A DNA stretch of 64,000 nt from Roseateles sp. (GCF_047654785.1 NZ_JASGKQ010000002.1:577268-641267); one strand, 5' to 3'. Positions 5,229 through 23,679 are shown, counted from the stretch's first letter. The notes: generated by a model not told the origin, from the sequence alone. Made by a program: numbers and translations.

Positions 5229-6722
5229 ATGAACAACGAAGAGACCTTGCGCGGCATCCGCCGTGGCATCGAGAAGGAAAGCCTGCGCGCCCTGCCGGAC
5301 GGCGGCCTGGCGCTGACGCCGCACCCCGCCGCGCTGGGGTCGGCGCTGACGCATCCGCACATCACCACCGACTACAGCGAGTCCCAGCTGGAGCTGATCA
5401 CCGGCGTCCACGCCGGGGTGGACGGGGTGCTGGGCGAGCTGACCGAGATCCACCAGGCGGTCTACCGCGCGCTGGGCGACGAGCGCCTGTGGGCCAGCTC
5501 CATGCCCTGCGGGCTGCCGGCCGACGAGACCATCCCCATCGGCCGCTACGGCCACAGCAACGTGGGCCGCGCCAAGAGCGTCTACCGCATGGGCCTGGGC
5601 CAGCGCTACGGCCGGCGCATGCAGACCATCTCGGGCATCCACTACAACTGGTCGCTGCCCGGCGTGGGCACCGACGGCTACCTGGCCGCCATCCGCAACT
5701 TCCGCCGCGAGGGCTGGCTGCTGCTCTACCTGTTCGGCGCCAGCCCGGCGCTGTGCGAGAGCTTCGTCGCCGGCCGCGAGCACGGGCTGCAGCGGCTGTC
5801 CGGCCGCACGCTGTACCAGCCGCACGCCACCTCGCTGCGCATGGGCCCGCTGGGCTACCAGAGCGACGCGCAGGCCCGCATCGCCGTCAGCTACAACTGC
5901 CTGGAGAGCTATGCCGCCTCGCTGCAGGACGCGCTGGCCACGCCCTACCCGGCGTACGAGGCCATCGGCGTGCAGACGCCCGGCGGCGACTACAACCAGC
6001 TCTCGACCAGCCTGCTGCAGATCGAGAACGAGTTCTACGGCACCATCCGCGCCAAGCGCGTGATCCGCCCCGGCGAGCGGCCGCTGCACGCGCTGCGCGA
6101 GCGCGGCGTGGAGTACATCGAGGTGCGGCTGATGGACCTGGACCCGTTCGAGCCCGTGGGCATCGGCGCCGACGCCATCCGCGTGCTCGATGCCTTCCTG
6201 CTGCATTGCCTGCACGGCGACAGCCCCGCCGACACGCCCGCCGAGATCGCCGCCAACGCGCGCAACCAGCACCGCGTCGCCGCGCGCGGCCGCGAGCCCG
6301 GCCTGGTGCTGGAGCACTGGCGGCGCGGCGAACTGCCGCTGGCGGACTGGGCCGGCGAGATCCTGGCCGGCTGCGCGGTGCAGGCCGCCGCGCTGGACGC
6401 CGCGCACGGCGGCAGCGCCTACCGCGACGCGCTCGCCCGCGTCGGCCGCCGGCTGGCCGAGCCGGCGCTGTGCCCGTCGGCCCGCGTGCTGGCGGCCATG
6501 GCGCGGGACTTCCACGACAGCCACGTCGCCTTCATCCGCCACCGCAGCGACGCCGCCCGCGCCGCGCTGCTGGCGCTGCCCTTCCCCGACGCGCTGCAGC
6601 GCCGCTTCGAGCGGCTGGCCGCCGACTCGCGCGCCGAGCAGGCCCGCATCGAGGCGGCGGACACGCTGCCGTTCGAGGAGTTCCGGCGCCACTACGTCGC
6701 GCCGGAGCGCATGGCGGTCTAG
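5229..6722 (+). CDS. gshA: Glutamate--cysteine ligase (type 1, E. coli-like)
   Basis: RGIEKESLR ... ALGSALTHPHITTDYSESQLELITGV matches the GshA N-terminal signature. Similarity pattern extends over the full length. Confidence 0.9.
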   Translation: MNNEETLRGIRRGIEKESLRALPDGGLALTPHPAALGSALTHPHITTDYSESQLELITGVHAGVDGVLGELTEIHQAVYRALGDERLWASSMPCGLPADETIPIGRYGHSNVGRAKSVYRMGLGQRYGRRMQTISGIHYNWSLPGVGTDGYLAAIRNFRREGWLLLYLFGASPALCESFVAGREHGLQRLSGRTLYQPHATSLRMGPLGYQSDAQARIAVSYNCLESYAASLQDALATPYPAYEAIGVQTPGGDYNQLSTSLLQIENEFYGTIRAKRVIRPGERPLHALRERGVEYIEVRLMDLDPFEPVGIGADAIRVLDAFLLHCLHGDSPADTPAEIAANARNQHRVAARGREPGLVLEHWRRGELPLADWAGEILAGCAVQAAALDAAHGGSAYRDALARVGRRLAEPALCPSARVLAAMARDFHDSHVAFIRHRSDAARAALLALPFPDALQRRFERLAADSRAEQARIEAADTLPFEEFRRHYVAPERMAV

Positions 6723-8893: not shown

Positions 8894-9011
8894 GGCGGCG
8901 AGTATGAAAGCGCCGCCACGCGCCCCGCGCCCCGCCGCCCGCGCCGGCCGTGAAGGGTTGACGCCACAGGCCAAAAAAGGACGGCCCAGGCCCGCTGCCG
9001 ATAATCCGGCC

Positions 9012-9704
9012 ATGCCCGCTCCCACGCCCCACGCCGCCGAAACCCTGTCCGAAGCCGAGCTGGAGCGCCTGCAGGCGCTGCTCGACGCGCTGCCCGCGCC
9101 GCTGCAGCCGCTGGACGTGAGCATGCTGGACGGCTACCTGTGCGGCGTGCTGCTGCAGCCTCAGGCGGTGCTGCTGGCCGCGTGGCTGCCGCCGCTGCTG
9201 GACAGCGAGGGCCGGCCGACGCCGGCGCGCGTCGACGACGAGCTGCTGGCGCTGCTGCGCCGCCGGCACAAGGAACTGAACCTGGCCATCACCGGCCGGC
9301 AGTGGTTCGACCCGTGGGTCTTCGAGCTCGACGACGAGGCCGGGCCGAGCGACGCGGTGCTGCCCTGGGTGGCCGGCTTCGCGCATGCGCTGGACGCGCA
9401 TCCGGCGCTGCTGCAGCTGCCCGAGGAGCCGCTGCTGGAGCCGCTGGCCGCGATCTACCTGCACCTGGACCCGGACGACCTGGAAGACGCCGACGCGCTG
9501 CTGGAGGAGATCGAGTCGCTGGAGCCGCCGGCCGATCTCGAAGAAGCCGTGGAAGGCCTCGTCAGCGCGGTGCTGATGCTGGCGGACGTGTCGCGGCCGC
9601 TGCGGGCCGAGCCCGGCCGTGGCGGCCTCAGCGGTCCGCGGCGAACAGGCGCTGCGCGTGCAGCCCCAGCCCGGCCGCGACCGAGGCAAAGCGGTCGCCG
9701 CTGA
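9012..9704 (+). CDS. UPF0149 (YgfB-like) family protein
   Basis: LPAPLQPLDVSMLDGYLCGVLLQP and an acidic C-terminal half are typical of the family. Start chosen at ATG 9012. The last ~35 residues are Arg/Pro-rich and overlap the convergent gene. Confidence 0.7.
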   Translation: MPAPTPHAAETLSEAELERLQALLDALPAPLQPLDVSMLDGYLCGVLLQPQAVLLAAWLPPLLDSEGRPTPARVDDELLALLRRRHKELNLAITGRQWFDPWVFELDDEAGPSDAVLPWVAGFAHALDAHPALLQLPEEPLLEPLAAIYLHLDPDDLEDADALLEEIESLEPPADLEEAVEGLVSAVLMLADVSRPLRAEPGRGGLSGPRRTGAARAAPARPRPRQSGRR

Positions 9705-10905
9705 CGCGCGCCGCGGCCGGGAAGCCGGCGGCCATGCCGTCCACCAGCAGCCGCAGCCCGGTCGAGCCGCCGGTGAAGTACAGCGCGTCCACCTGATCGG
9801 CCGTCAGCCCCGCCAGCGCCACCGTCTCGTGCGCGGTGGCGATGATGCGGTCCAGGTCGGCGCGCAGCGCGGCCACGGCGGTCCGCTCGCCCAGCGGCAG
9901 CAGCAGGCCGGGCTCCACGTGGCCCAGGTCCACCGTGGTGTCGGCGCCGCCGGAGATGGCGATCTTGGCGCCCTCGGCGCGCGCGGCCAGGTCGTGGCCC
10001 AGGCGCTCGTCCAGCACCGTCATCAGCCGCGCGTGCTGGCGCGCGTCGCCGAACCAGCCCTTCATGCCGCGCCACTCGGCCACGCGCAGCGGCGCGTAGC
10101 AGGTGTTGATGAGGTGCCAGGTGGCCAGGTCGAAGTAGAGGCCGCTGGGCACCTCGCGCCCGCTCGGGCCGAGGGCGCGGTAGCCGAAGGCCTGCAGCAT
10201 GCCGGCGAGTTCGATGTGGCGGTCGAAGTCGGTGCCGGCGACGTGCAGGCCGTGGCTGGCCAGGATGTCGTCGCGCCGCGCCAGCCGGCGCATGCGCTCC
10301 GGGCCGACGCGGACGACGGAGAAGTCGCTGGTGCCGCCGCCGATGTCGGCCACCAGCACCAACTGCTCGCGGCTGGCCTGCTGCTCGAAGTCGAACGCCG
10401 CGGCGATCGGTTCGTACTGGAAATGCACCTCGTCGAAGCCGGCCGCCCGGGCGCAGGCCGCCAGCTGCGCCTGCGCGGCGGCGTCGCGCGCGGGGTCGCC
10501 GTCGACGAAGCTCACCGGCCGGCCCAGCACCGCGCGCGTGGGCTCGCCGGCCAGGCGGCGCAAGCGCTTCAGGTAGCCGGCGACGATGTCCGCGTAGCGC
10601 GCGCCGCGGCCGCCGCCGACGTCGGTGGTCTGGTCGATCAGCGCCGAGCCGAGGATGCTCTTCATGGAGCGCATCAGCCGGCCGTCGTGGCCGTCCACGT
10701 AGGCGGCCACGGCGGCGCGGCCGAAGGCGCGCGGCGGGCCGTCGGCGTCGTGCGGCCCTTCCGCGAAGTAGAAGACGGCCGTGGGCATGGTGCGCTGGCC
10801 GGGCTCCAGCTCGATGAGGCGCATCGCACCGTCCGGCCCCGGCACGGCCACGGCGGAGTTGGAGGTGCCGAAATCGATGGCGCAGAAACCGGGCGGATTG
10901 CTCAT
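9628..10905 (-). CDS. Hsp70-family ATPase, YegD-like
   Basis: Actin-fold phosphate motifs AIDFGTSNSAVA and VADIGGGTSDFSV are present. Size is about 425 aa. Confidence 0.85.
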   Translation of the reverse strand: MSNPPGFCAIDFGTSNSAVAVPGPDGAMRLIELEPGQRTMPTAVFYFAEGPHDADGPPRAFGRAAVAAYVDGHDGRLMRSMKSILGSALIDQTTDVGGGRGARYADIVAGYLKRLRRLAGEPTRAVLGRPVSFVDGDPARDAAAQAQLAACARAAGFDEVHFQYEPIAAAFDFEQQASREQLVLVADIGGGTSDFSVVRVGPERMRRLARRDDILASHGLHVAGTDFDRHIELAGMLQAFGYRALGPSGREVPSGLYFDLATWHLINTCYAPLRVAEWRGMKGWFGDARQHARLMTVLDERLGHDLAARAEGAKIAISGGADTTVDLGHVEPGLLLPLGERTAVAALRADLDRIIATAHETVALAGLTADQVDALYFTGGSTGLRLLVDGMAAGFPAAARVSGDRFASVAAGLGLHAQRLFAADR

Positions 10906-10941
10906 GGCGTGGCGGCGGCGCGGGGGCCGGTCCTGACAAGG

Positions 10942-10958
10942 GGCGCGGATTCTAGGAA
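10942..10958 (-). promoter_or_regulatory. TTCCTAGAATCCGCGCC motif (TAGAAT -10-like) 36 nt upstream of the yegD-like start
   Basis: This is an exact 17-mer also found at 39684-39700, oriented toward the downstream gene. Confidence 0.4.
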
Positions 10959-10988
10959 CACAATCGCCGGCCCGTTCCCGGAGAGACG

Positions 10989-13775
10989 ATGAAACCGCGC
11001 CATTTCGCCCTGATCCTGCTGGCCGCCGCCCTGGCCGGCTGCAGCCAACGCACGGAGCAGGACCTGCTCGCCGCCGCCCAGAAGCGCCTGGCGGAGAAGG
11101 ACAACGCGGGCGCCGTCATCGAGCTGAAGAACCTGCTGCAGCAAAGCCCCGACAACGCCGTCGCCCGGCAGCTGCTGGGCCAGTCGCTGCTGGAGGCGGG
11201 CGACCTGGCCGGCGCCGAGATCGAGCTGCGCCGCGCCTGGGAGCTGGGCGCGCCGCGCGACGCGCTGGCGCCGCTGCTGGCGCAGGCGCTGCTGTACTCC
11301 GGCCAGTCGCGCAAGCTGATCACCGAGTTCGCGGACCAGAGCCTGGCCGACCCGCAGGCCGGCGCCACGCTGCAGCAGCACCTGGCGCTGGCCTACCTCG
11401 CGCAAGGCAACCTGCCTGAGGCCAAGGCCGCCGCCAGCCGCGCGCTGCAGCTGGCGCCGCAGTCCGACGCGGCCGCCATCGCCGGCGCGCGCGTCAAGCT
11501 GGCCAGCCGGCTTCCCGACGAGGCGCTGGCCATGCTGGACCAGGTGCTGCAGCGCAGCCCGCAGTCCGCCCCGGCGCTGCTGCTGAAGGCCGAGGTGCTG
11601 CTGGCGCGCGGCAAGGCCGAGGAGGCCGAGCCGCTGCTGGCGCAGGCGGTGGCGGCCGACCCGGGCGGCTACGACGCCCGCTCGCTGCTGGTGCGCCTGG
11701 CCTTCGCCCGCCAGCAGGTGGACGCCGCCGCCAAGCTCGTCGACGACATGCCGCCCGCCGCGGCCAAGAAGCCGCAGGGCCGCTTCCTGCAGGCACAGGT
11801 GGCGCTGGCCCGCGGCGACGCCGCCAAGGCCAGCGAGCTGGCGCTGCCGCTGCTCAAGCTGATGCCCAGCTACCTGCCGCTGCTGCGCCTGGCGGCCGGC
11901 GCGCACCAGCAGCTCGGCGAGCTGGCCGACGCCGAGAACCTGTTGGGCCAGGCGCTCAAGCTCGCGCCGGACGACCCCGCGCTGCGCCGCCAGTCCGCCG
12001 GCCTGCAGCTGCAGCGCCACCAGCCGGCCAAGACGCTGGAGACGCTGCGCCCCGTGCTGGACAGCGGCCGCGCCGACGCCGAGACGCTGATGCTGGCCGG
12101 CCGGGCGCAGCTGATGCAGGGCGACTTCGAGGCCGCCGACCAGGCCTTCGGCGCGGCGGCCCGGCTGCGCCCGGACGACGCCAAGACCCAGGCCGCGCTG
12201 GCGCTGGCGGCCATCGCGCGCGACGGCGCCACGCCCGGCGGCGCCGCGCGGGCCAAGGCCGACGCGGCGATCGTCCAGCTGCGCGAGCTCGCCGCCAAGG
12301 ACGGCGGCGGCAACTACGACCTGATGCTGGTCAACGCGCTGATGCGCCGCCAGGACTTCCCCGCCGCGCTGGCGGCGCTGGACAGGCTCGCGCCCAAGAT
12401 GAAGGGCAGCCCCGTGCCCGACGCGCTGCGCGGCCGCATCCTGCTCGTGCGCAAGGACGCGGCCGGCGCGCAGGCCGCGTTCGACGCCGCGCTCAAGGCC
12501 GACCCCGGCTACCTGCCCGCCGCACTGGGCCGGGTGTCGCTGGACCTGCAGGCCGGCCGCGGCGACGCCGCCGTCAAGCGGCTGGAAAGCTTCATCGCCG
12601 AGCACAAGAGCGCGCCGCAGGCCCGCCTGGCGCTGGCCGAGCTGCTGGTGCAGACCCGGGCGCCCGCCGAGCGCGTCACCGAGGTGCTGGCCGCCGCCGT
12701 GCGCGAGGAGCCCACCGAGCCGGCGCTGCGCCTGGCGCTGATCGACCACCGGCTGCGCCTGGGCGACGCGGCCGCCGCCGCGCAGGCGGCGCAGGAGGCC
12801 ACCGCCGCGCTGCCGCTCAACCCCGACCTGCTGGAGCGCCTGGCGCGCACCCAGCTCGCCGCCGGCGACCGCGCCCAGGCCGGCAAGACCTACACGCAGC
12901 TCACCACGCTGGCGCCGCAGCGCGCCGCCGGCTGGCTCGGGCTGGCGCAGCTGCGCTTCATGGACAAGGACGACGCCGGCGCCGAGCGCGAGGTGAAGCG
13001 CGCGCTGGAGGCCGAGCCGGGCGCGGCGGTGGCGCAGCGGCTGCTGATCCAGCTCGCGCTGCGCCAGGGCCGCACCGACGAGGCGCTGGCCGCGCTGCAC
13101 GAGCGCCAGAAGCAGCATCCGCAGGAGGCCTTCGCGTTCGTCGCCGAGGCCGAGGTCGAGATGGGCCGCAAGAATCCGGATGCCGCCATCGCGCTGCTGC
13201 GCAAGGCCACCACGCTGCGCGTGCCGGGCGACGCCGCGCCACGCCTGCTGGCGGCGCTGCTGGCGCACCGGAAGCGCGACGAGGCGCTGGCCTTCGAGGC
13301 GCAATGGCGGCAGGCGCATCCGCAGGACAGCGCCTTCGCCGCCGCCGCCGCCGACCTGCTGCTGACCCGCGGCGACCTGGACGGCGCGCTGGCCCGCTAC
13401 GAGGCGCTGCTCCAGCGCAACCCCGACGCCGTCCCGCTCATCAACAACGTCGCCTGGCTGCGCAGCAAGCAGGGCAAGCCCGGCGCGCGCGAGCTGGCCG
13501 AGCGCGGCCTGGCGCTGAAGGCGGAGGACGCGGCGCTGCGCGACACCTACGCCACCGTGCTGGCCAACGAGAAGCAGTTCGGCCGCGCCGTCAGCCTGCA
13601 GCGCCAGCTCGTCGCCGAGCAGCCCGAGCAGCCGGCCTACCGCCTGAACCTGGCGCGCATCCTGATCCAGTCCGGCGACAAGGCCGCCGCCCGCTTGGAG
13701 CTGGACGGCCTGGCCAGGCTGGGCGCGAAGTTCCCGCAGCAGCGGGACGTGGAGGCGCTGCTGAAGACGCTGTGA
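10989..13775 (+). CDS. TPR-repeat lipoprotein, PEP-CTERM system PrsT-like
   Basis: Lipobox LLAAALAGC. About 930 aa of TPR repeats. The N-terminal pattern AVIELKNLLQQSPDNAVARQLLGQSLLEAGD resembles the PEP-CTERM TPR lipoprotein family as I recall it. Confidence 0.75.
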   Translation: MKPRHFALILLAAALAGCSQRTEQDLLAAAQKRLAEKDNAGAVIELKNLLQQSPDNAVARQLLGQSLLEAGDLAGAEIELRRAWELGAPRDALAPLLAQALLYSGQSRKLITEFADQSLADPQAGATLQQHLALAYLAQGNLPEAKAAASRALQLAPQSDAAAIAGARVKLASRLPDEALAMLDQVLQRSPQSAPALLLKAEVLLARGKAEEAEPLLAQAVAADPGGYDARSLLVRLAFARQQVDAAAKLVDDMPPAAAKKPQGRFLQAQVALARGDAAKASELALPLLKLMPSYLPLLRLAAGAHQQLGELADAENLLGQALKLAPDDPALRRQSAGLQLQRHQPAKTLETLRPVLDSGRADAETLMLAGRAQLMQGDFEAADQAFGAAARLRPDDAKTQAALALAAIARDGATPGGAARAKADAAIVQLRELAAKDGGGNYDLMLVNALMRRQDFPAALAALDRLAPKMKGSPVPDALRGRILLVRKDAAGAQAAFDAALKADPGYLPAALGRVSLDLQAGRGDAAVKRLESFIAEHKSAPQARLALAELLVQTRAPAERVTEVLAAAVREEPTEPALRLALIDHRLRLGDAAAAAQAAQEATAALPLNPDLLERLARTQLAAGDRAQAGKTYTQLTTLAPQRAAGWLGLAQLRFMDKDDAGAEREVKRALEAEPGAAVAQRLLIQLALRQGRTDEALAALHERQKQHPQEAFAFVAEAEVEMGRKNPDAAIALLRKATTLRVPGDAAPRLLAALLAHRKRDEALAFEAQWRQAHPQDSAFAAAAADLLLTRGDLDGALARYEALLQRNPDAVPLINNVAWLRSKQGKPGARELAERGLALKAEDAALRDTYATVLANEKQFGRAVSLQRQLVAEQPEQPAYRLNLARILIQSGDKAAARLELDGLARLGAKFPQQRDVEALLKTL

Positions 13776-15050
13776 TCAGGCGTTGTAGAAGCCGAAGCGC
13801 ATGCCGGGCCGGCGGCCGGCGATGAGCTCGGCCAGCGCGCGGCCCGAGCCGGCGCCGTGCGTCCAGCCCAGCGTGCCGTGGCCGGCGTTGATCCACAGGT
13901 TGCGCGCCTGGCTGCTGCGGCCGATGTAGGGGATGTTGGTCGGCGTGCTGGGGCGCAGGCCGGCCCAGTAGTTGGGTTCGCGGGTGTCGGCGACGCCGGG
14001 GAACAACTCCTCGTAGCGCCTGACCAGCGCCGCGCAGCGCACCCGGGCGGTGGGCGAGTCGAGGTTCAGGTCGAAGCCCGACAGCTCGGCCGTGCCGGCG
14101 ATGCGGATGTGGTCGCCCAGGCGCGAGATGGCGATCTTGCGGCTGTCGTCCAGCAGGCTGACGACGCTGGCCGCCTCGGGCTTCTTCAGCCGCAGCGTGG
14201 CCGAGTAGCCCTTGGCGGGGTAGATGGCGAGGTGCTCGCCCAGCGGCTTCACCAGCGCGGGGGTGTACGAACCCATCGCGGCGACGAAGGCGTCGGCAGC
14301 CAGCGTCCTGCGCTCGCCGGTGCGGGTGTGGGCGATGTGCGCGGCGGCGATGCCGTCGCCCGCGCGCTGCAGCGCCAGGATGTCGTGCTCGTACAGGAAC
14401 TGCGCGCCGCGCTCGGCGCAGCGCCGCGCGAGCTGCTGCGTGAAGACCTTGGCGTCGCCGCTCTCGTCGCTGGGCGTGAAGGTGCCGCCGGCCACCTGGG
14501 CGCCGAAGCCGGCCAGCGCCGGCTCGATCTTCAGCACCTCCTCGCGGCTGAGCACGCGGCGGTCCACGCCGTGGCGGCGCATGATCTCCGCGCCGGCCGC
14601 GCCGTTGTCGTAGTCCGCCTGGCTGGAGAAGAAGTGCAGGATGCCGCGCTCCAGCCGGCAGTACTCGATGCCGGTGCGCGCGACCAGTTCCTTCAGCGAC
14701 TCGTGCGAGTAGCGGCCCAGCTGCACCAGCGCCTCCACGTTGCGCTCGAACGCGGCAGTGGTGCACTGCGTCAGGAAGGACAGGCCCCAGCGCCACTGGT
14801 TGGGGTCCAGGCGCGGGCGGAACAGCAGCGGCGAGTCGTCGCGCAGCAGCCACTTGGCCACCTTGAACGGCGCGCCCGCGTTCGCCCAGGGCTCGCAGAA
14901 GCTGACCGAGATCTGCGCGCCGTTGGCGAAGCTGGTTTCCAGCGCCGCGTCGGGCTGGCGGTCGACGACGATGACCTCGTGGCCCTCGTCCAGCAGGTAC
15001 CAGGCGGTGGCGATGCCGATGATGCCGGCGCCGAGAACGACGATCTTCAT
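13776..15050 (-). CDS. FAD-dependent D-amino acid dehydrogenase (DadA-like)
   Basis: Start at MKIVVLGAGIIGIATAWYL (Rossmann GxGxxG). DadA-like pattern over the full length. The listed longer start has no support. Confidence 0.85.
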   Translation of the reverse strand: MKIVVLGAGIIGIATAWYLLDEGHEVIVVDRQPDAALETSFANGAQISVSFCEPWANAGAPFKVAKWLLRDDSPLLFRPRLDPNQWRWGLSFLTQCTTAAFERNVEALVQLGRYSHESLKELVARTGIEYCRLERGILHFFSSQADYDNGAAGAEIMRRHGVDRRVLSREEVLKIEPALAGFGAQVAGGTFTPSDESGDAKVFTQQLARRCAERGAQFLYEHDILALQRAGDGIAAAHIAHTRTGERRTLAADAFVAAMGSYTPALVKPLGEHLAIYPAKGYSATLRLKKPEAASVVSLLDDSRKIAISRLGDHIRIAGTAELSGFDLNLDSPTARVRCAALVRRYEELFPGVADTREPNYWAGLRPSTPTNIPYIGRSSQARNLWINAGHGTLGWTHGAGSGRALAELIAGRRPGMRFGFYNA

Positions 15051-15180
15051 GGGGGGCTCGTGAGCGGGTGGAGCGGGCGGTTGCATGCCCAGGCGGGGCG
15101 TGCGCATCGGCGGATTCTCCGCAGCCGCCGCCCATTCAAGAAGCGGGATTCATATTTCTCGCTCTACATTAGCAAGGCTT

Positions 15181-16089
15181 ATGAGCGACTTCGACCCCGC
15201 CGCCCTGGACTGCCTCGCCGCGCTGGCCGACGAGCAGGGCTTCGAGCGCGCCGCGCAGCGCCTGGCCATCACGCAGAGCGCCGTCTCGCAGCGGCTGCGC
15301 TCGCTGGAGGCGCAGGCCGGCCAGCCGCTGGTGGTGCGCTCCCGGCCGCTGCGGCTGACCGAGGCCGGCAAGGTGCTGCTGCGCTTCGCCCGCCAGCTGC
15401 AGGCGCTGCGCGTGGACGTGGCGCGGGAGCTGGGCGAGCGGGTGGCGCCACAGTCGCGCCTGGCCATCGCCGTCAATGCCGACAGCCTGGCCACCTGGGT
15501 GCTGCCGGCGCTGGACGGCCTGGTGCAGCAGGGCCTGCGCGAGGGCTATGGGCTGGAACTGGTCGTCGACGACCAGGACTTCACCCACGACAGCCTGCGC
15601 CAGGGCGCGGTGCTGGGCTGCGTCTCCACGGTCGCCGAGGCGCTGCAGGGCTGCCGCGTGCAGCCGCTGGGCGTGATGCGCTACGTCGCGGTGGCCAGCC
15701 CGCGTTTCCTGGCGGCGCAGCTGCCGGACGGCCTGCACGCCGGCAACTTCGCCGACACGCCCTTCCTGGTGTTCAACCGCAAGGACGACAACCAGGTGCA
15801 GTGGGTGTCGCAGGCTTTCGGCGTGCGCGCGCCGCGGCTGCGCGAGCGCTTCGTGCCCTCCAGCGAGGCCTATGTGAACGCCGCCGTGATGGGCTGGGGC
15901 GTGGGGGTGGCGCCGGAGATCCAGGTGCGGCCCTTGGTCGCGGTGGGCCGCCTCGTCATGCTGGAGCCGGCGGTGGGCGTGGACGTGGCGCTCTACTGGC
16001 ACCAATGGCAGCTGCAGGGCCGGGGCGCGCTGCTGGACCAGATCGGCCAGGCGCTGGCCGACGGCGCGCGCCGGGCGCTGGGCGGCTGA
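15181..16089 (+). CDS. LysR-family transcriptional regulator, ArgP/IciA-like
   Basis: Start at MSDFDPAALDCL. The wHTH is FERAAQRLAITQSAVSQRLRSLE. Divergent from the dadA-like gene. Confidence 0.85.
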   Translation: MSDFDPAALDCLAALADEQGFERAAQRLAITQSAVSQRLRSLEAQAGQPLVVRSRPLRLTEAGKVLLRFARQLQALRVDVARELGERVAPQSRLAIAVNADSLATWVLPALDGLVQQGLREGYGLELVVDDQDFTHDSLRQGAVLGCVSTVAEALQGCRVQPLGVMRYVAVASPRFLAAQLPDGLHAGNFADTPFLVFNRKDDNQVQWVSQAFGVRAPRLRERFVPSSEAYVNAAVMGWGVGVAPEIQVRPLVAVGRLVMLEPAVGVDVALYWHQWQLQGRGALLDQIGQALADGARRALGG

Positions 16090-16266
16090 TCAGCGCGTGA
16101 CGGTGGGCGCGGAAGCCGCCGTGTCGGCCGCCGCCACGGCCTGGGAGATGAACAGCGACATCACGTCGTGCTCGCTGGGCTGCACCGCCTGGGCCACCCA
16201 CAGCGTGCCGGCCACGACCAGGCCGACCATGCCGTGGGCGAACCATTTCAAGAGTGCTGAATTCAT
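16090..16266 (-). CDS. Small (58 aa) putative membrane protein
   Basis: MNSALLKWFAHGMVGLVVAGTLWVAQAV contains one TM helix. Third-position GC is very high after the first codons. No clear SD. Confidence 0.4.
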   Translation of the reverse strand: MNSALLKWFAHGMVGLVVAGTLWVAQAVQPSEHDVMSLFISQAVAAADTAASAPTVTR

Positions 16267-16275
16267 GCGGGAAAG

Positions 16276-16354
16276 CCCGGAGGTCCGAAGGAGCGGCAGC
16301 TTACCCCCATCCAGGGGGGATGGACCGGCGGACCTCCGGGCGGTGTGGTTTTTT
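16276..16354 (+). terminator. Long hairpin (12-bp perfect stem) followed by T6; terminator-like or structured RNA
   Basis: CCCGGAGGTCCG (16276-16287) pairs with CGGACCTCCGGG (16329-16340). The loop holds an inner CCATCC/GGATGG stem. The T6 run at 16349-16354 lies 8 nt after the stem. Confidence 0.45.
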
Positions 16355-16581
16355 GTGCAGTGCCGCAATTTGCGGCGAGCGCGGCCCGGCCCCTGATGCG
16401 AAATCGCCACGCTTGAGGCCCGGACCCTGCCGTTGCGGGGCCGGCGACCCACCCTGAATGTGTGGTCCTGGGGCGAAGGGCAATATTTACTCACAGTTGA
16501 GGGATTCATTTGTCATATCGATCCCGCACACTGCCGGCACGGTTCGACGCGGTTGTCGAACGCCACCCCACGAGGTTTGCC

Positions 16582-16803
16582 ATGCGATTCGTTCCCGCGC
16601 TGCGCTTTTTCCGCCGTGGCGCCGCCGTGCGCAACGCGCCGGACCCGGCCGACCTCGGCACCGCCTTCGGCCTGGACGCCTGCCTGGACGGCGGCGGCAT
16701 CAGCGACTACCGCAGCCAGCCCAAGAGCGACTACCTCGAATCGCAGTCCGCCCGCCCGTCCCAGGAGTCCCCGCTGGGCTGGCTGTCGCGCCGGACGGCC
16801 TGA
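16582..16803 (+). CDS. Hypothetical 73-aa protein
   Basis: A GAGG sits 6 nt before ATG 16582. Third-position GC is high throughout. No recognisable domain. Convergent with the pssA-like gene, with a 3-nt gap. Confidence 0.5.
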   Translation: MRFVPALRFFRRGAAVRNAPDPADLGTAFGLDACLDGGGISDYRSQPKSDYLESQSARPSQESPLGWLSRRTA

Positions 16804-16806
16804 CGC

Positions 16807-17424
16807 CTACAGCTTCGGAATCCGGATCCGACTCACCATCAGCGACCCGGACAGCGCGAACAGCAGCACCAGCGGGTGCAGCCGGAACCCGGCGATCCAC
16901 CACACGCCGCCCCACAGCGCGTCGCCGATGGCGCCCTGCGCCGCGGCGGCCCACAGCACCGCCACCAGCAGCATGGACGTCGGGATGGGCGTGCCCTCGA
17001 AGTAGGCCACCTTGTCCGAGCCGGCGCTGAGCTTCTCGGCCGTCACGTTGTAGCGCGCCAGCCGGCTGACGCCGCAGGCGACGAAGAACACCAGCACGAT
17101 GCGGTCGTACAGGCCCTGCATGCCGCAGCCGTAGGCGATGACGGCCGGCGCGACGCCGAACGAGATGACGTCGGCCAGCGAATCCAGCTCCCGGCCCAGC
17201 GCCGAGCTCTTCTGCCGCCAGCGCGCGATGCGGCCGTCGAGCACGTCGAAGGCCAGCGCCAGCGGGATCAGCGCGCAGGCGTATTGCAGGTGCCGCGTGT
17301 CGCCGCTCTGCAGAAAGCTCATCACCGCGAACAGCGCGCCCATGCCGGCGCAGGCGTTGCCCAGCGTGAACCAGTCGGCGAGGTGGAACTCGCGGATCAT
17401 CGAGAACGGCTTGGGCTTGTCCAT
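16807..17424 (-). CDS. CDP-alcohol phosphatidyltransferase family protein (PssA-like)
   Basis: Start at MDKPKPFSMIREF. Complete motif DGRIARWRQKSSALGRELDSLAD (DGx2ARx8Gx3Dx3D). Multiple TM helices. Confidence 0.85.
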   Translation of the reverse strand: MDKPKPFSMIREFHLADWFTLGNACAGMGALFAVMSFLQSGDTRHLQYACALIPLALAFDVLDGRIARWRQKSSALGRELDSLADVISFGVAPAVIAYGCGMQGLYDRIVLVFFVACGVSRLARYNVTAEKLSAGSDKVAYFEGTPIPTSMLLVAVLWAAAAQGAIGDALWGGVWWIAGFRLHPLVLLFALSGSLMVSRIRIPKL

Positions 17425-17438
17425 GGCAGCCGCGATTG

Positions 17439-18539
17439 TCAGGCCGTGGCGGGCGGCTCCGGCTCGGGCGGCGGCTTCAGCCGCAGCCAGGCCTTGCGGG
17501 CCAGGTGCCGCAGCAGCAGGCCGCCGGGCATGCGCAGCCAGTGGGAGCGCACGTACAGGGCGAGCCGGGCGGCCCCGGTCAGCGGGCGGTCGCAGCTGGG
17601 GTGGTCGGGCATCAGCGCGCGGGCATAGCAGGCGTCCAGCAGCGGCTGGCTGGCCGGGCTGCCGGCGCAGGCAGCCTGCAGCCCCGCGGCGGGCACGGGC
17701 GTGCCCAGCAGGCGCGTGGTGTAGCGCAGCGCGAGGGCCAGCGGCCGGCCCAGGCCGAGCGAGCGGGCACGCGGCAGCAGCGCGTCCCAGAAGCCGGGGT
17801 CGCGGCCGAAGTCCCTCAGCAGCGCGTCGAGGTCGAACAGGTCGCGCAGCCCCTTCTCCAGCTCGCCCTCGTGGAACAGGTGGGTGGCGCTGTGCAGCAC
17901 CATGGTGGCCGGCGCCAGCACGCGCACGCCGGGGTGGCCCGGCAGCTCCTGCGCGTCCTCGAACAATGCCGCCGTGTTCACCCGGATGCGCGCCGTGGGC
18001 GGCAGGATGGTGTGGTGGACGTCGAGGCTGCTGCCGCGCTGCTCGTGGGTCAGCGGCGGGATCTCGTGCATCCACTCGCGGTAGTAGCGCTCGTCATAGG
18101 CGTCCAGGTCGTCCTGGAAGGACCAGCCGTGCGCGAGCAGGGCGGCTTCGATGTCGGCGATGCGGTCCCGGGGCACGAGGATGTCGACGTCGCCGAACAC
18201 GCGGCCCGCGCTGGCCGGCAGGCCGGCCATCAGGTAGGCGCTGCCTTTCAGCAGGATGGGCGCCACGCCCAGGGGCTGGAGCGCGGCCTGGATCCGGCTC
18301 ACCTCCCAGTGCGTCAGCTTGGCCTGGCGCGCGGCGGTCATCAGCGCGGCGTGGAGGTGGTGGCGGGGGCCGGGCGGCACCTGTTCGAGCCAGGGCTTCA
18401 GCGCGACGGCCAGTTTGGCCAGCAGCAGGCCCCGGCGCGCCTGCCGCAGCAGCAGGTCCCAGTCCAGCGGCCGCAGGCGCAGCGCCGACGCCGGGTCCAG
18501 CAGCACGCGCAGCAGCAGCGGGGCGGATGCGGTCTTCAT
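17439..18539 (-). CDS. Nucleotidyltransferase family protein (NTP_transf_5-type)
   Basis: Start at MKTASAPLL overlaps the upstream stop (ATGA). NTase signature KGSAYL...FGDVDILVPRD. Confidence 0.8.
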   Translation of the reverse strand: MKTASAPLLLRVLLDPASALRLRPLDWDLLLRQARRGLLLAKLAVALKPWLEQVPPGPRHHLHAALMTAARQAKLTHWEVSRIQAALQPLGVAPILLKGSAYLMAGLPASAGRVFGDVDILVPRDRIADIEAALLAHGWSFQDDLDAYDERYYREWMHEIPPLTHEQRGSSLDVHHTILPPTARIRVNTAALFEDAQELPGHPGVRVLAPATMVLHSATHLFHEGELEKGLRDLFDLDALLRDFGRDPGFWDALLPRARSLGLGRPLALALRYTTRLLGTPVPAAGLQAACAGSPASQPLLDACYARALMPDHPSCDRPLTGAARLALYVRSHWLRMPGGLLLRHLARKAWLRLKPPPEPEPPATA

Positions 18540-19447
18540 GCGGCGTCCGCCAATTGGTCGATGCGCTGCACGGCCTCGGCCAGCGACGAGTACTGGAATT
18601 CCAGGCAGTCGCAGCGGTCGACCAGGTCGGCCGTGGCCTCGAAGCCCGGGCGGCCATGGAGGTCGTAGTTGAACGCCTGTTCGGCCAGCAGCAGCAGCAT
18701 GCGGGCCTTGGGCACGTCGGCCAGCGCCGGCGCGGCGCCAGCGGTGTAGCGCGGCGTGATGATCCAGGCCGGCTGCGCGGTTTCGGCCACGCGGGCCACG
18801 CTCTGCGCGGGGGCCTTCATCAGCGCGAGCGTCCCCTTGGTGGTGTCCGGCACCGGGCGCGTCAGCTCGGCCTGCGGCGCGAACCGCCGGATCGCGTCGA
18901 TGGAGACGTTCTTCAGGTTGACCGGCCGGCCCATGCCGGTCACCCGGCCGCCGGCCGGGTCGTACAGGGTGATTTCGTCGGACATCAGCCGCCAGCCCCG
19001 GTGCGCCAGCGCGGCCGTCAGCGTGCTCTTGCCCGAGCCGGGGGGGGCCGGCATGACCAGGGCCCGGCCGTCGCGCTCCAGCGCGGCGGCGTGGTAGGAC
19101 AGGTAGGGGTGGGCCATCGTGCTGACGGCCCAGTTCAGCCCCCACTCGATCATGTGGAAGCCCTGCTCCGCGGGCAGCGGGCTGAAGGCGGGCTCGCCGT
19201 CGGCGTAGAAGCGGGCCATGGGCTTGACCCAGCGGCGCAGGCCGCCTTCCCGCCGCACTTCGAGGTGGAAATCCGCGAAGTCCTCGGCCGTGCCGAGGTC
19301 GAAGTCGGCATAGAGGAAGGCCAGGTCCTCGGCGACCCGGTCCAGGTCCGAGCGCAGGCGTGCGACGAAGGGCGGCACCTTGACGACCAGCTCGCCGCGG
19401 GCCAGCCGGCGGCGCAGATCCCGGGGCGCCAGGTCGCGGAGCTTCAT
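18536..19447 (-). CDS. HprK-related P-loop kinase (type A by context)
   Basis: Walker A is PAPPGSGKSTLTAAL. Size is about 300 aa. It sits downstream of a PqqD-like gene with an ATGA overlap. Confidence 0.8.
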   Translation of the reverse strand: MKLRDLAPRDLRRRLARGELVVKVPPFVARLRSDLDRVAEDLAFLYADFDLGTAEDFADFHLEVRREGGLRRWVKPMARFYADGEPAFSPLPAEQGFHMIEWGLNWAVSTMAHPYLSYHAAALERDGRALVMPAPPGSGKSTLTAALAHRGWRLMSDEITLYDPAGGRVTGMGRPVNLKNVSIDAIRRFAPQAELTRPVPDTTKGTLALMKAPAQSVARVAETAQPAWIITPRYTAGAAPALADVPKARMLLLLAEQAFNYDLHGRPGFEATADLVDRCDCLEFQYSSLAEAVQRIDQLADAA

Positions 19448-19740
19448 GGCGGCGGGGGGAGCTGCCCGACCAGCCCCAGGTCCCGCAGCGCGCGCAGCTG
19501 GCGGTCGAAGAAGGCGGCCGCCGTTTCTGCGTCCATCAGCTCGGGGGTCGCGTCGGCCAGCTGTTCGACCAGTTGCGCCACCGATCGCGGCTGCCGGGCC
19601 AGCAGTTCGAGGAGTTCGATGGACAGCGCGTCGACCAGGTGGGTGTCGCCGCAGCCGTCGTCGTAGACGGCGCCCAGCCCCTCCCAGTCACGCCAGCAGA
19701 TGTCGGCCGGCCGATGGATGCACCACAAGGGCTCCCGCAT
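19444..19740 (-). CDS. PqqD-family peptide chaperone (RRE-like)
   Basis: 98-aa acidic protein with the THLVDALSIELLELL...SVAQLVEQL winged-helix pattern typical of PqqD-like proteins. Translationally coupled to the kinase gene. Confidence 0.75.
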   Translation of the reverse strand: MREPLWCIHRPADICWRDWEGLGAVYDDGCGDTHLVDALSIELLELLARQPRSVAQLVEQLADATPELMDAETAAAFFDRQLRALRDLGLVGQLPPPP

Positions 19741-19780
19741 CTGCGTTCAGGCGCCTGTCACCGCCGGCAGCGCGAGCGGC

Positions 19781-20494
19781 TCAGCTCAGGCGGCCGATGA
19801 AATTGCTTTCCAGATAGCGTCGGACGTCTTCGGCATACCAGGTCTTGCCGTCCGGGCCCTTGCCCGAGCCGGCGGCGACGATGTTGCCGAGCGTGGTCAG
19901 CTGGTTCGACGAGAAGGTGTCGATCACGCACACGTCGGTCTTCGTCGTGTTGCTGATGCGGTAGTTCAGCCAGGCGACCAGCATCGCCTTCTGGGCGGCG
20001 GAGTAATTGCCGGTCAGCGCGTCCCAGATCTTCACGTTCTTGCCGATCCCGGCGGTACCGTTGGCGCTGCCGCAGGCGCTGCCCACTGTGTACTTCTTGA
20101 CGGTGCTGACCTTCAGGTCGGCGCAGCTGATGGAGTTCTTGCGCCAGCCATCGCAGCTTGCGTAGTCGGTTTTGCCGGTCCGGTACTTGGCGACCCACTG
20201 TGCGAGGGTGTAGCAGGTCACCGTCGGCGCTGCGGCCGCCTTGCGTGTGTACTGGCTGGCATTGGTGCCGACCAGCGTCTGCACCGAGCCCCAGGCGGAG
20301 GCCGAGAAGCACTTGCCCTGGCTGTTGGTCGCCAGCACGGGGCGGCTGCTCAGCGTCAGCGCCACGGGCACGACGCCCGCGCCCATCTTGATGAAGCGGC
20401 GGCGGCGCTCCGAAGCCGCCTGGCGGGCGGACACGTCAACATGCGCTGGCGCGCCGGGCGCGGGCTGCGAGTCGTTCGGTTGGTGTTCGCTCAT
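19781..20494 (-). CDS. Secreted Cys-rich protein with twin-arginine signal (237 aa), unknown family
   Basis: Start at MSEHQ, with GAGG 8 nt upstream. Tat motif is ERRRRFIKMG followed by a hydrophobic stretch and PVLA/TN. The mature part has six Cys. Local GC is markedly lower than in the neighbours. Confidence 0.65.
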   Translation of the reverse strand: MSEHQPNDSQPAPGAPAHVDVSARQAASERRRRFIKMGAGVVPVALTLSSRPVLATNSQGKCFSASAWGSVQTLVGTNASQYTRKAAAAPTVTCYTLAQWVAKYRTGKTDYASCDGWRKNSISCADLKVSTVKKYTVGSACGSANGTAGIGKNVKIWDALTGNYSAAQKAMLVAWLNYRISNTTKTDVCVIDTFSSNQLTTLGNIVAAGSGKGPDGKTWYAEDVRRYLESNFIGRLS

Positions 20495-20564: not shown

Positions 20565-20593
20565 CACACAAAGCCCGGCAGGGCACGCCGGGC
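20565..20593 (-). terminator. Rho-independent terminator after the ypfJ-like gene
   Basis: On the minus strand the sequence reads GCCCGGC-gtgccct-GCCGGGC followed by TTTGTGTGG. Confidence 0.55.
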
Positions 20594-20628: not shown

Positions 20629-21501
20629 TCACAGGGCCGTCGCGGAGAAGGTGTCGCAGACCTTCAGGTCGCCCGCCTCCAGGCCGCGCTTGAACCACCG
20701 CGTCCGCTGCGCGCTGCTGCCGTGGGTGAAGCTTTCCGGCACGATCGAGCCGCTGCTGCGCTTTTGCAGCGTGTCGTCGCCGATCTGGGCGGCGGCGTTC
20801 AGCGCTTCCTCGATGTCGCCCTGCTCCAGCCAGCCCTTGCCGCGCTGCGAGTGGTTGGCCCAGACGCCCGCGTAGCAGTCGGCCTGCAGTTCCAGCCGCA
20901 CGCTCATGGCGTTCATCTCGCGCTCGGAGACGCGGCCGCGGGCGCGGTCGAGCTTCTCGGTGGTGCCCATCAGGTTCTGCAGGTGGTGGCCCACCTCGTG
21001 GGCGATGACGTAGGCCTGCGCGAAGTCGCCGGGGGCGCCCAGGCGCTCGCGCAGCGTGTCGTAGAAGCTCAGGTCGATGTAGACCTTGCGGTCGGCCGGG
21101 CAGTAGAACGGGCCCATGGCCGCCTCGCCGGCGCCGCAGGCGGTGGGGTAGCGGCCGCGGAAGATGACCAACTGCGGCGCCGGGTACTGCTGGCCGCTGC
21201 GCTGGAAGTAGGCGCCCCAGACGTCTTCCGTGTCCGCCAGCACGACGCTGACGAAGCGCCCGGCGGCGTCCTGCGGCGGGGCGGTGGCGGTTGGCGCCGC
21301 CTGCGGCAGGGGGGCGCCTCCGCCGCCCTGCAGCAGCCCCAGCACGGTCAGCGGGTTGACGCCAAGCACCCAGGACGCCAGCAGCGCGATGGCCACGCCG
21401 CCGATGCCGATGCCGCGCCCGCCGATCGGCAGTCCGCGGCCTCCGCTGCTGTTGCGGGCGTCCTGGACGTTGTCACTCTCGCGCTGGCCTTCCCATTTCA
21501 T
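20629..21501 (-). CDS. Neutral zinc metallopeptidase, YpfJ family
   Basis: N-terminus [14 protein letters not shown]. One TM segment. HExxH in [11 protein letters not shown]. Confidence 0.85.
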
Positions 21502-21563
21502 GGCGGTCGTCTCCTCTGGTCGGTCGCGTCATCGTAAGGCCCCGCAGCCGGGGGGGCCGGCGC

Positions 21564-23264
21564 TCAGGGCCTGAGCTTCAGGTCGTGCCCCTGGGCCTGG
21601 GCCGGCGCGGGCAGGCCGGCGATGCCGGCGAGCGTGGGCGCCAGGTCGGCCACTTCGACGCGGTTCTTCATCTCGCCCTGGCCGACGTAGCCCGGCCCCC
21701 AGAACAGCAGCGGCACGTGGGTGTCGTACCGGTAGGGGCTGCCGTGCGTGCTGCCGCCGGGGCGGTAGCTGTAGATCCAGTGCGGCTTGAGCACGATCTG
21801 CAGCGGCGCGGCGCGGGTCGGGTCGAAGGACTTGCGCATGGCGTCGAGGTAGGGCGTCGCCGTGTCGGTGCCCAGCAGCTGCTCGCGCGTGAACACGGCC
21901 GCGACGCCGGGCAGCTTCAGCAGTTCGTCGCGGGCGGTGGCCTGCACGTCGGCGGCGTTCAGCCGGTGCTCGGCGATCAGCGCGTCGTTCAGCAGCAGGC
22001 CGGCGGCGGAGAAGCCGCGCGCCAGCTGGGCGACGCCGAATTTCTCGTTCAGCGCCGTGTTGACCACCGCCAGCGACACCGCGCCGGCGAAGCGGTGGGC
22101 GTCCCGGCCCTGCGTGGCGGCCCACTCGGGCGTGTCGGTGAAGCCGTGGTCGGCCGTCAGCGCCAGCACGTAGTTGCCGGCGCCCACGGTCTGGTCGAGG
22201 AACCGGAAGAAGGCCTGCAGGTGGCGGTCCAGGTGCAGCAGGTGGTCCTGCGACAGGCGGGACTCGGGGCCGAACGCGTGGTTGATGTAGTCGTGGCTGG
22301 ACAGGCTCACCGACAGGATGTCCTGCACGCCGCGCTGGCCCAGCTGCTCGTTCTTCACGGCGGCGCGGGCGAAGGCCAGCGTCAGCTCGTCGCCGAAGGG
22401 CGAGGGCAGGATGTTGCCGTAGAAGCGCGGGCCGGGCGCGTCCATCTTGTCGCCCAGCACGGCGGGCAGGCGGTTGCCGTTGCCGCTGGCCACCTGCCAG
22501 GGCTGGCCGTCCGGCACGGAGCGGGCGTAGGCGCAGGCGGACGTGGTCTGGGGGCAGTCGAACCCGGGCAGCAGCGGCGTCCAGGCCTTCTTGAAGAAGG
22601 CGTCGGCGGGCTTGGCGGCGTTGAAGTCGGTCACCCATTGCGGGTGGGCGGCCATGTAGTAGGTGCTGGAGGCGAAGCGGCCCGTCTCGCTCATGTACAT
22701 GTAGGCCGTGCCCTTGTGCCCGGCGGGCAGGATGGCGCCGCGGTCCTTGCCGGAGATGCCGATCACCTTGGAGGCCGGCGAGCGCGTGCGCAGCACGTCG
22801 CCCAGCGTTTCCACCTTCAGGCTGCGCGGGCTGGTGCCGGCCAGCGGGGCGGTCGGGCTGTCGATGTACCGGTAGGCGGCGTCGCCGGTGTTGTAGACGG
22901 GGGCGCCGGTGGCGGGGTCGCGCCATTCGTTGCTGATGATGCCGCTGCGCTGCGGGTAGGCGCCGGACAGCATCACCGCATGGCCGGCCGCCGTGACCGT
23001 GTGGCCGTGGGCGTAGTGCGCATCGGAGAACCAGCGGCCGTGGTCGAGGAAGCGGGCGAAGCCGTCCGGCGCGAGCAGGTCGCGGTAGCCGGTGACCTGG
23101 CGCATGGGCAGGCCGTCGATGACCACCAGGACCAGCAGCTTCGGCGCCTGCTGCGCCTGCCGTGGCGGCACCGTGGCGGATGGGGGCGTGCTGCAGGCGC
23201 TGAACAGTGTCGAGGCGGCAGCGGCGAGGGCCAGGCTCAATAGGCGGCGGCGGGAGTTCATCAT
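21564..23264 (-). CDS. Alkaline phosphatase/nucleotide pyrophosphatase superfamily lipoprotein
   Basis: Start at MMNSRRRLLSLALAAAASTLFSAC (lipobox). AP-superfamily pattern VVIDGLP...GHTVTAAGH...LTADHGF. Confidence 0.85.
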   Translation of the reverse strand: MMNSRRRLLSLALAAAASTLFSACSTPPSATVPPRQAQQAPKLLVLVVIDGLPMRQVTGYRDLLAPDGFARFLDHGRWFSDAHYAHGHTVTAAGHAVMLSGAYPQRSGIISNEWRDPATGAPVYNTGDAAYRYIDSPTAPLAGTSPRSLKVETLGDVLRTRSPASKVIGISGKDRGAILPAGHKGTAYMYMSETGRFASSTYYMAAHPQWVTDFNAAKPADAFFKKAWTPLLPGFDCPQTTSACAYARSVPDGQPWQVASGNGNRLPAVLGDKMDAPGPRFYGNILPSPFGDELTLAFARAAVKNEQLGQRGVQDILSVSLSSHDYINHAFGPESRLSQDHLLHLDRHLQAFFRFLDQTVGAGNYVLALTADHGFTDTPEWAATQGRDAHRFAGAVSLAVVNTALNEKFGVAQLARGFSAAGLLLNDALIAEHRLNAADVQATARDELLKLPGVAAVFTREQLLGTDTATPYLDAMRKSFDPTRAAPLQIVLKPHWIYSYRPGGSTHGSPYRYDTHVPLLFWGPGYVGQGEMKNRVEVADLAPTLAGIAGLPAPAQAQGHDLKLRP

Positions 23265-23442
23265 GACGGTTTTGTGACAGGGGTGCGCGAGCTTACGTCG
23301 TCCCAATGTCTGGCTTGTAAAGCCGGCCGGCGCGGGGGTGGTTGAAAGCCCTAGCCCGGGGGCTTCGCGCATCGTGGAAAATACGGGGCCCGCGCGTCTG
23401 CCCGCGCGCTTCCCTCTCACAACACTCTTCGACAGGACCAGC

Positions 23443-23679
23443 GTGGCCAAAGAAACCACCAAGACCACCATCGAAGCGGATGGTCTGCGCTACCGCTCCA
23501 AAGCTCCCGGCTCGCCGTTCGCGGCGACCTCCTCCTTCGGCGCCGCGACGATGTCTTGCTTCCTCTGCGGCAAACACCGCCCGCGCGCGATGCTCAAGTC
23601 CAAGAAGCTGCTGGGCAAGTCGCAGCCCGTGTGCTCGCCGTCCTGCAAGGAGCTGGACGCGCAGATCGCCGCTAAATAG
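23443..23679 (+). CDS. Small zinc-ribbon-like protein (78 aa), paralog 1
   Basis: GTG start. DGLRYRSK..GSPF...CFLCGKHR...VCSPSCKEL aligns with the ORF at 24556-24759. Confidence 0.6.
   Translation: MAKETTKTTIEADGLRYRSKAPGSPFAATSSFGAATMSCFLCGKHRPRAMLKSKKLLGKSQPVCSPSCKELDAQIAAK

Follow-up and report, generated by a model that had tools for sequence, protein, structure and literature searches.

An HPr-rel-A gene trio and a protein with a Tat-type leader form a conserved cassette of exopolysaccharide loci: a candidate protein-modification system

Gene layout and conservation of the cassette

We analysed a 64-kb stretch of DNA from a metagenome-assembled genome of Roseateles sp. (GCF_047654785.1, NZ_JASGKQ010000002.1:577268-641267), called here the window, along which all coordinates are counted and which has an overall GC content of about 72%. 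Five genes of its minus strand, termed A to E, encode a precursor-like protein with a twin-arginine translocation (Tat)-type leader, a PqqD-family recognition element (RRE) of the kind that serves peptides that are synthesised ribosomally and modified post-translationally (RiPPs), an HprK-related kinase, a nucleotidyltransferase-fold enzyme and a phosphatidylserine synthase (pssA). We found that genes A to D form a conserved cassette, which on our reading would modify protein A before its export. The genes and features of the unit are the following.

Gene A, 19781-20494, minus strand: 237 aa, precursor-like protein with a Tat-type leader, without a Pfam or NCBIfam family
Leader of A (codons 1-55), 20330-20494, minus strand: RRRRFIK, h-region GAGVVPVALTLSS and c-region RPVLA; proposed RRE-binding site
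Motif C-F-S-A-S-A-W-G-S of A (codons 62-70), 20285-20311, minus strand: just past the predicted signal-peptidase site; proposed phospho-acceptor region (S66 or S70)
Gene B, 19444-19740, minus strand: 98 aa, PqqD-family RRE (HPr-rel-A system peptide chaperone), TIGR04353
Gene C, 18536-19447, minus strand: 303 aa, HprK-related kinase A, a P-loop Ser kinase, TIGR04352
Gene D, 17439-18539, minus strand: 366 aa, NTP_transf_5 nucleotidyltransferase-fold enzyme, PF14907
Gene E, 16807-17424, minus strand: 205 aa, CDP-diacylglycerol-serine O-phosphatidyltransferase (pssA), TIGR00473
Terminator-like hairpin, 20573-20593, minus strand: ends the upstream ypfJ-type zinc-metallopeptidase gene; 5′ boundary of the unit

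As the initial annotation of this DNA had stated, the five genes are co-directional and are separated, in A to E order, by 40, -4 (ATGA), -4 (ATGA) and 14 nt, values that we reproduced exactly, and the stop codon of B overlaps the start of C within ATGA. The terminator placed upstream of gene A in that annotation is likewise present, as the hairpin listed above, 3′ of the ypfJ-type gene. The GC content at third codon positions is 0.89-0.98 in all five genes, the same as in flanking core genes, and neither a hidden small open reading frame (ORF) nor an Rfam RNA element was found inside the A-E unit.

Hidden Markov model (HMM) searches of Pfam and NCBIfam matched B, C, D and E to the families that had been proposed for them. 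B scored 54 bits with TIGR04353 (PqqD_rel_X, cut-off 35), C scored 359.1 bits with TIGR04352 (HprK_rel_A, cut-off 200) and D scored 185 bits with PF14907 (NTP_transf_5), so that the window holds a kinase above its cut-off, an adjacent PqqD protein above its cut-off and an adjacent PF14907 gene, the composition of the HPr-rel-A system of NCBIfam, of which B and C are equivalog-level family members. The catalytic motifs of both enzymes are intact and conserved: PAPPGSGKSTL, H119 and S-D-E are invariant in the kinase, and the motif LKGSAY...GRxFxDxD of D is at least 90% conserved in 84 sequences. Furthermore, the kinase-family profile aligns with the catalytic core of the HprK/P of L. casei (1jb1, E = 0.005). 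Searches of the PDB with B, C and D as single sequences gave no useful relatives; HprK/P was reached with the kinase profile only.

When the kinase alignment was scanned against 185,579 species genomes, at least 596 kinase loci were identified, 80 of which were fetched. We compared 84 loci, numbered with an L prefix, 83 of them distinct, as L003 is a second contig with the same genes as L002; flanks of 9 kb were fetched, and profiles of A were run on the six-frame ORFs. An A-type ORF was found directly upstream of the PqqD gene in 81 of the 84 loci. Two of the three misses are cut by contig ends, and the third, L064, has at this place a divergent A-like ORF with RR and C-T-V-S-G. D directly follows the kinase in all 84 loci, and the order A-B-C-D is invariant across Burkholderiales, Rhodocyclales, Thiobacillus and Steroidobacter. 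In the neighbourhoods of A homologues, the A, PqqD, kinase and NTP_transf_5 genes occur together in three genomic contexts, two of them without pssA. We conclude that A-B-C-D is, almost certainly, one four-gene functional cassette. The linkage of the trio B-C-D to a Tat-signal protein, which the initial annotation had proposed, therefore holds, with the A-type gene in fixed order; the companion proposal of a linked pssA does not extend beyond the Roseateles group, where alone pssA lies beside the trio.

NCBIfam models cover the kinase (TIGR04352) and the PqqD protein (TIGR04353) of the HPr-rel-A system. For A we found no family in Pfam or NCBIfam, and the same was true of ten diverse A-type proteins. 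The literature searched held no paper that mentions HPr-rel-A, HprK-related kinases or TIGR04352, and none that combines exosortase with HprK. The HPr-rel-A trio, for which this literature offered no account of substrate or function, would thus gain a previously unmodelled and testable substrate gene, A, whose family comprises 449 clusters at 50% identity in an exhaustive profile search (E ≤ 1e-3).

An exopolysaccharide locus as the setting

To describe the setting of the cassette, flanking ORFs of the 83 distinct loci were clustered and representatives were scanned against NCBIfam. We found PrsT within the 9-kb flanks in 49 of the 83 loci, PrsR in 29 and PrsK in 25. The XrtA-system export protein, chain-length determinant and tyrosine autokinase (18-19 loci each), together with the TIGR03013 glycosyltransferase, the TIGR03016 outer-membrane protein and the TIGR03015 ATPase, recur in 15-19 loci each. 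Two layouts are typical: in one, a glycosyltransferase gene, PrsK, PrsR and PrsT precede A-B-C-D and a protease gene follows; in the other, genes for the ATPase, outer-membrane protein, tyrosine kinase, chain-length determinant and export protein precede A-B-C-D and PrsT follows. The window itself holds the PrsT gene about 3 kb from the cassette, with dadA, argP, two small ORFs and pssA between them.

PrsT, 10989-13772, plus strand: XrtA/PEP-CTERM TPR-repeat protein (TIGR02917, 591 bits against a cut-off of 312)

PrsK, PrsR, exosortase and export genes were not found elsewhere in the 64-kb window, and the window contains no PEP-CTERM-tailed proteins. Collectively, the 83 loci show that the cassette belongs to the XrtA/PEP-CTERM exopolysaccharide (EPS) locus, a context that the initial annotation had missed. 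The gene content and order of the cassette, its conservation pattern and this genomic context are direct observations. They place the cassette centrally in a locus on which floc formation in wastewater bacteria depends and whose biochemistry is so far little understood.

Furthermore, 31 of 80 loci have a match to a sigma-54-type -24/-12 promoter upstream of A; among control windows the proportion is about 7%, and on the opposite strand 7 of 80 loci match. These matches, such as TGGCACAAGGATTGC in L073, lie 100-300 nt upstream of the RR codons of A, fall within L012-L084 and are enriched in non-Roseateles loci. Such an enrichment suggests that A may be under RpoN/PrsR control.

Other genes recur beside the cassette. 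A trypsin/HtrA-like serine protease of about 270 aa is present in 29 loci (for example L004, 10614-11426, L019, L031 and L039) and a lytic-transglycosylase-like protein is encoded in 15; the window has neither. Either of them could process the exported A or act with it. In L001 (Paucibacter sp. R3-3) the cassette lies away from pssA, a gene of the Asn-synthase family (571 aa, 5677-7392, minus strand) is divergently upstream, and the downstream region (11128-16699) encodes glycosyltransferases, a FemAB-like acetyltransferase, two Hydrolase_4 proteins and a carrier protein, which together look like an exosortase-A-type EPS block.

Protein A and its proposed modification

The N-terminus of A reads SERRRRFIKMG, followed by a weakly hydrophobic stretch and SRPVLA. 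It has the features of a Tat signal as judged from its sequence: an SRRxFLK-like motif, a weakly hydrophobic h-region in which G, A, V, T and S are frequent, a c-region with a basic residue (R51, followed by V-L-A) and a V-x-A site. The Tat-signal model TIGR01409 matches residues 31-54 with 14 bits, below the cut-off of 16.7. In the initial description A was a Tat-signal, Cys-rich protein; a Tat-like leader is visible in the sequence, and "Cys-rich" is only modestly true, as A has 6 Cys among its 237 residues, C62 and C189 being invariant.

Next we considered how conservation is distributed along the protein. In 37 close homologues the invariant leader positions are R30-32, K36, G38, P43, V44, T47, L48, S50, R51, P52, V53 and A55, and past the leader C62, S66, A67, W68, G69 and S70 are also invariant. 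Across 76 locus-derived A sequences, C62, S66 and S70 have frequencies of about 0.9, and the mean frequency of the top residue is 0.54 in the leader and motif versus about 0.3 in the mature domain, which makes the N-terminal 70 residues the most conserved part of A. The consensus is RRRRFIK-x-GAG-x-VPVALTL-x-SRPV-x-A followed, within a few residues, by C-x-[ST]-[PA]-S-[AG]-[WF]-x-S, and the C-termini vary among homologues. Stronger conservation of the leader than of its passenger, together with an h-region Pro that does not vary, would be expected of an RRE-recognised precursor rather than of an ordinary Tat substrate, and we take the conservation pattern of A to fit the former.

The remainder of A is predicted to be a folded domain of about 150-170 aa that carries conserved Trp, Asn and Cys residues. 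In an AlphaFold2 (AF2) model, residues 1-86 have a predicted local distance difference test (pLDDT) score below 50 and residues from about 90 to 237 are compact with a pLDDT of 85-94; such a confidently modelled C-terminal domain would suit Tat export. Foldseek returned no match for it in the PDB at E ≤ 0.001. A homologue search for A gave 44 proteins only, mostly from Roseateles and Paucibacter, and identities within the family range from 31 to 78%. An NCBI entry from Roseateles sp. is 100% identical to A. Among the matches listed in the exhaustive profile search, most are 190-260 aa long, and the weak ones align to the N-terminal region only.

The closest characterised system is found in Bacillota, in the linear polyphosphorylated peptide (LPP) clusters described by Popov et al. 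(2026, PMC13381572). Their conserved core comprises a precursor, a discrete PqqD RRE, a kinase of HprK-like type, an NTP_transf_5 protein, a signal peptidase I (SpI)-like peptidase and an ABC exporter; in the domain tables the transferase (LppN) is NTP_transf_5 and the kinases are of TIGR04352/TIGR04249 type, many with TIGR04352 as best hit (PMC13381572). The LPP precursors are 35-200 aa long, with a conserved N-terminus and a variable C-terminus, and the clusters lie within capsule loci (PMC13381572). The kinase polyphosphorylates Ser3 of the core (AQSNWK), cleavage comes afterwards, and removal of the leader is RRE-dependent (PMC13381572). The window has the same trio of discrete PqqD-type RRE, HprK-like kinase and NTP_transf_5 protein, and the precursor logic and the polysaccharide-locus setting are common to both. 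In addition, the candidate acceptor Ser of A lies a few residues past the leader cleavage site, in S-A-W where LPP precursors have S-N-W, and the leader of A would, as in the LPP clusters, be removed by a signal-peptidase-type enzyme.

The differences are equally clear. The SpI-like (SipW-type) peptidase LppS was not seen in the five genes, their flanks or the annotated recurrent neighbour clusters of the 83 loci, where the trypsin/HtrA-like protease recurs instead, and the MsbA-like exporter LppD is absent from the unit, the scanned flanks (about 5-16.5 and 20.6-23.5 kb) and the same annotated clusters. The leader of A, RRRRFIKxGAGxVPVALTLxSRPVxA, is of the twin-arginine kind and does not contain the LPP leader motif YxxPxVLxHQxIxFETxxS; the comparison extends no further than the conserved Pro and a Ser closely following the cleavage site. 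Moreover, the "core" of A is a folded domain, the host belongs to the Pseudomonadota with an XrtA/PEP-CTERM setting, and the cassette is known here from its genes. For these reasons we do not file the window cassette as an LPP cluster, and read it as working like one.

Similar likenesses and differences apply to the lasso-peptide clusters of paeninodin and pseudomycoidin (PadeK, ThcoK, PsmK, PsmN), which share with the window an RRE, an HprK-like kinase and an NTP-transferase-like protein. In these clusters the kinase phosphorylates a Ser of the precursor before processing, and in pseudomycoidin the NTP-transferase-like PsmN is needed for placing a hexose on the phosphate. The His-Lys-Asp-Asp catalytic motif of the lasso-peptide kinases has a counterpart in C in H119, K140, D157 and E158. 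In agreement with the initial annotation, which had noted the lack of a lasso cyclase, leader protease and exporter, we found no Asn-synthase-like cyclase, B2 cysteine protease or ABC exporter in the unit or the scanned flanking genes. The acceptor would also not be a C-terminal Ser, since the C-termini of A vary, and the substrate would be a protein and not a peptide of about 20 aa.

We hypothesize that A to D constitute an RRE-dependent protein-modification cassette that phosphorylates and decorates A before Tat export, a reading that on balance we favour. Under this hypothesis, binding of B to the Tat leader of A, which is unusually conserved and contains a Pro, would take place in the cytoplasm, and B would offer the flexible segment past the signal-peptidase site to the P-loop kinase C, which would phosphorylate or polyphosphorylate a conserved Ser of C-x-[ST]-x-S-[AG]-[WF]-x-S, most likely S66 or S70. 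D would then add a further group, a hexose or a nucleotide, onto the Ser phosphate, and the Tat machinery would export the modified A with its folded domain, the general signal peptidase cleaving after A55. The conserved leader and first mature residues, together with the linkage of A to the trio, make cytoplasmic modification before Tat export a reasonable reading, as the initial annotation had suggested. That A is the substrate of the trio we consider probable. We infer the chemistry from homology with the enzymes of the LPP and pseudomycoidin clusters, and by this analogy phosphorylation of A on Ser is rather likely; decoration of the phosphate by D is a tentative assignment that we hold at somewhat less than even confidence.

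We read this as a proteobacterial variant of the LPP logic in which a Tat signal may replace the dedicated peptidase and exporter; that the leader is itself a Tat signal would explain the absence of both. The route is consequently not wholly undescribed, as had first been claimed, because the same trio acts on a leader-bearing precursor in the Bacillota (PMC13381572). The reading would extend LPP chemistry from peptides of Bacillota to Tat-exported proteins of Pseudomonadota, and it puts forward a candidate acceptor motif.

Several observations weigh against this hypothesis. Beyond what shared phylogeny explains, the leader of A and B show no co-variation (partial r = 0.08), an uninformative result. 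The Tat HMM score of A falls slightly short of its threshold, its leader has nothing but the Pro of the YxxPxVL motif seen in lasso and LPP leaders, and at 237 aa A is longer than the described LPP precursors. Neither the window nor the Roseateles-type loci of shared synteny showed a sigma-54-like promoter upstream of A. Finally, LppN was inactive in the single heterologous LPP test (PMC13381572), which makes the chemistry of D the weakest step.

We also considered a bolder form of the hypothesis. Tat proofreading chaperones of the TorD/DmsD/NapD type (redox enzyme maturation proteins, REMPs) are small cytoplasmic proteins that hold a twin-arginine leader until the passenger is mature, and B could be likened to them by analogy only: B has the PqqD fold and is unrelated in sequence, and the maturation in question would be a covalent modification of Ser and not the insertion of a cofactor. 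The PqqD-fold RRE may thus double as a Tat-leader proofreading chaperone, and a Tat-exported, Ser-phospho(glyco)sylated protein may be required for XrtA/PEP-CTERM-dependent matrix or floc formation, as a primer, an anchor or a signal sensed by PrsT/PrsK. This is a speculative proposal that we regard as rather unlikely; if true, it would describe a RiPP-like pathway that operates at the scale of proteins, is coupled to Tat export and occurs in hundreds of Betaproteobacteria, floc formers of activated sludge among them.

Alternative readings of the trio, pssA and neighbouring genes

It is also conceivable that A is not the substrate, and that the trio modifies something else, for instance PEP-CTERM proteins, a small peptide missing from the annotation or a polysaccharide intermediate, with A as a co-regulated periplasmic accessory of EPS production. 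The position of the cassette among EPS genes would agree with this, as would the conserved residues and confident fold of the C-terminal domain of A, which probably has a function of its own; moreover, physical contact between A and B is a deduction to which the co-variation analysis adds nothing. Against this, PqqD-type RREs bind peptide leaders, and the N-terminus of A is the only leader-like, hyper-conserved segment in the unit, where there is no room for another precursor gene. A is always the first gene and always adjacent, and PEP-CTERM proteins, which bear Sec-type signals and fit poorly with a bulky modification made in the cytoplasm, are missing from the window. We therefore consider it unlikely that A is a bystander.

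Less likely still is a regulatory phospho-switch, comparable to the action of HprK/P on HPr, that would control EPS or floc gene expression or the export of A, with B merely a holding chaperone for the Tat leader like TorD/DmsD. C is related to the regulatory kinase HprK/P, and the cassette adjoins PrsK/PrsR/PrsT and appears to be sigma-54 controlled in many lineages. However, the conserved partner D is a transferase, neither a phosphatase nor a regulator, no HPr-like protein is encoded nearby, and where relatives of precisely this trio have been characterised, they produce modified peptides. Modification of A by the trio is hence the reading that we retain for A to D, and the remaining question is whether the fifth gene takes part in it.

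E matches TIGR00473 (pssA) with 111.2 bits (cut-off 107) and PF01066 with 88.7 bits, its motif DG-x2-AR-x8-G-x3-D-x3-D is intact (DGRIARWRQKSSALGRELDSLAD), and with a gap of 14 nt it is probably co-transcribed with D. Among the 83 distinct loci, pssA adjoins the cassette in 22, all from the Roseateles/Pelomonas/Paucibacter/Mitsuaria group (plus the duplicate contig L003); no non-Roseateles locus has it within 9 kb of the cassette. Even among the close relatives it is not constant: the cassettes of L001, L010 and L011 have no pssA at their side, and L005 has a remnant. In L005 (Pelomonas candidula, 11014-11136) only the N-terminal 41 residues of pssA remain after D, and in L010 (a metagenome-assembled genome of Roseateles depolymerans, 10997-11560) pssA is gone with the argP/lysE/dadA/PrsT synteny retained. 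An intact pssA must accordingly lie elsewhere in these two genomes, since the copy beside the cassette has been lost or degraded. The identity of pssA across the Roseateles-group loci is 79-96%, compared with about 48-86% for the kinase. It has more than 8000 close homologues, and orthologues that are 81-83% identical (Aquincola sp. S2 and two metagenome contigs) lie beside minCDE or creA with no cassette. Taken together, the restricted adjacency, the high identity, the losses and the cassette-free orthologues indicate that E, as judged by sequence comparison, is a slowly evolving housekeeping phosphatidylserine synthase, a neighbour of the cassette and not part of it.

A five-gene model, in which pssA would encode a tailoring enzyme specific to the system and, together with the trio, serve to link a phosphatidyl or similar group to the Tat protein, can draw on the short gap to D without an intervening terminator, on the likely co-transcription and on an adjacency kept in 22 loci spanning two divergent cassette lineages, but it is very improbable given the pattern of absence just described, the retention of the other flanking genes in L010, a housekeeping-like constraint that exceeds that of the kinase and of the A family, and the numerous homologues and cassette-free orthologues. 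The inclusion of pssA as a system member in the initial annotation is thus not upheld and fails by the condition which that annotation had itself set, and with pssA an unrelated neighbour the suggested phosphatidyl modification of A has no support. A misleading element is in this way removed from the model.

The surroundings of the unit contain further genes. Upstream of A, a ypfJ-type zinc metallopeptidase gene and a PafA-like alkaline phosphatase gene (20629-23471, minus strand) have the same synteny in L002, and no link between them and the cassette was seen. Just beyond PrsT lie a GGDEF-EAL protein of cyclic di-GMP turnover with an N-terminal sensor region (6722-9133, minus strand) and a YegD-like gene of the Hsp70 family (9631-11115, minus strand), for both of which a link to matrix regulation is possible. 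Between pssA and argP are two putative small ORFs without a family match (16090-16509, minus strand, and 16510-16803, plus strand), and their position equals that of two called genes of 73 aa in L002 and L003.

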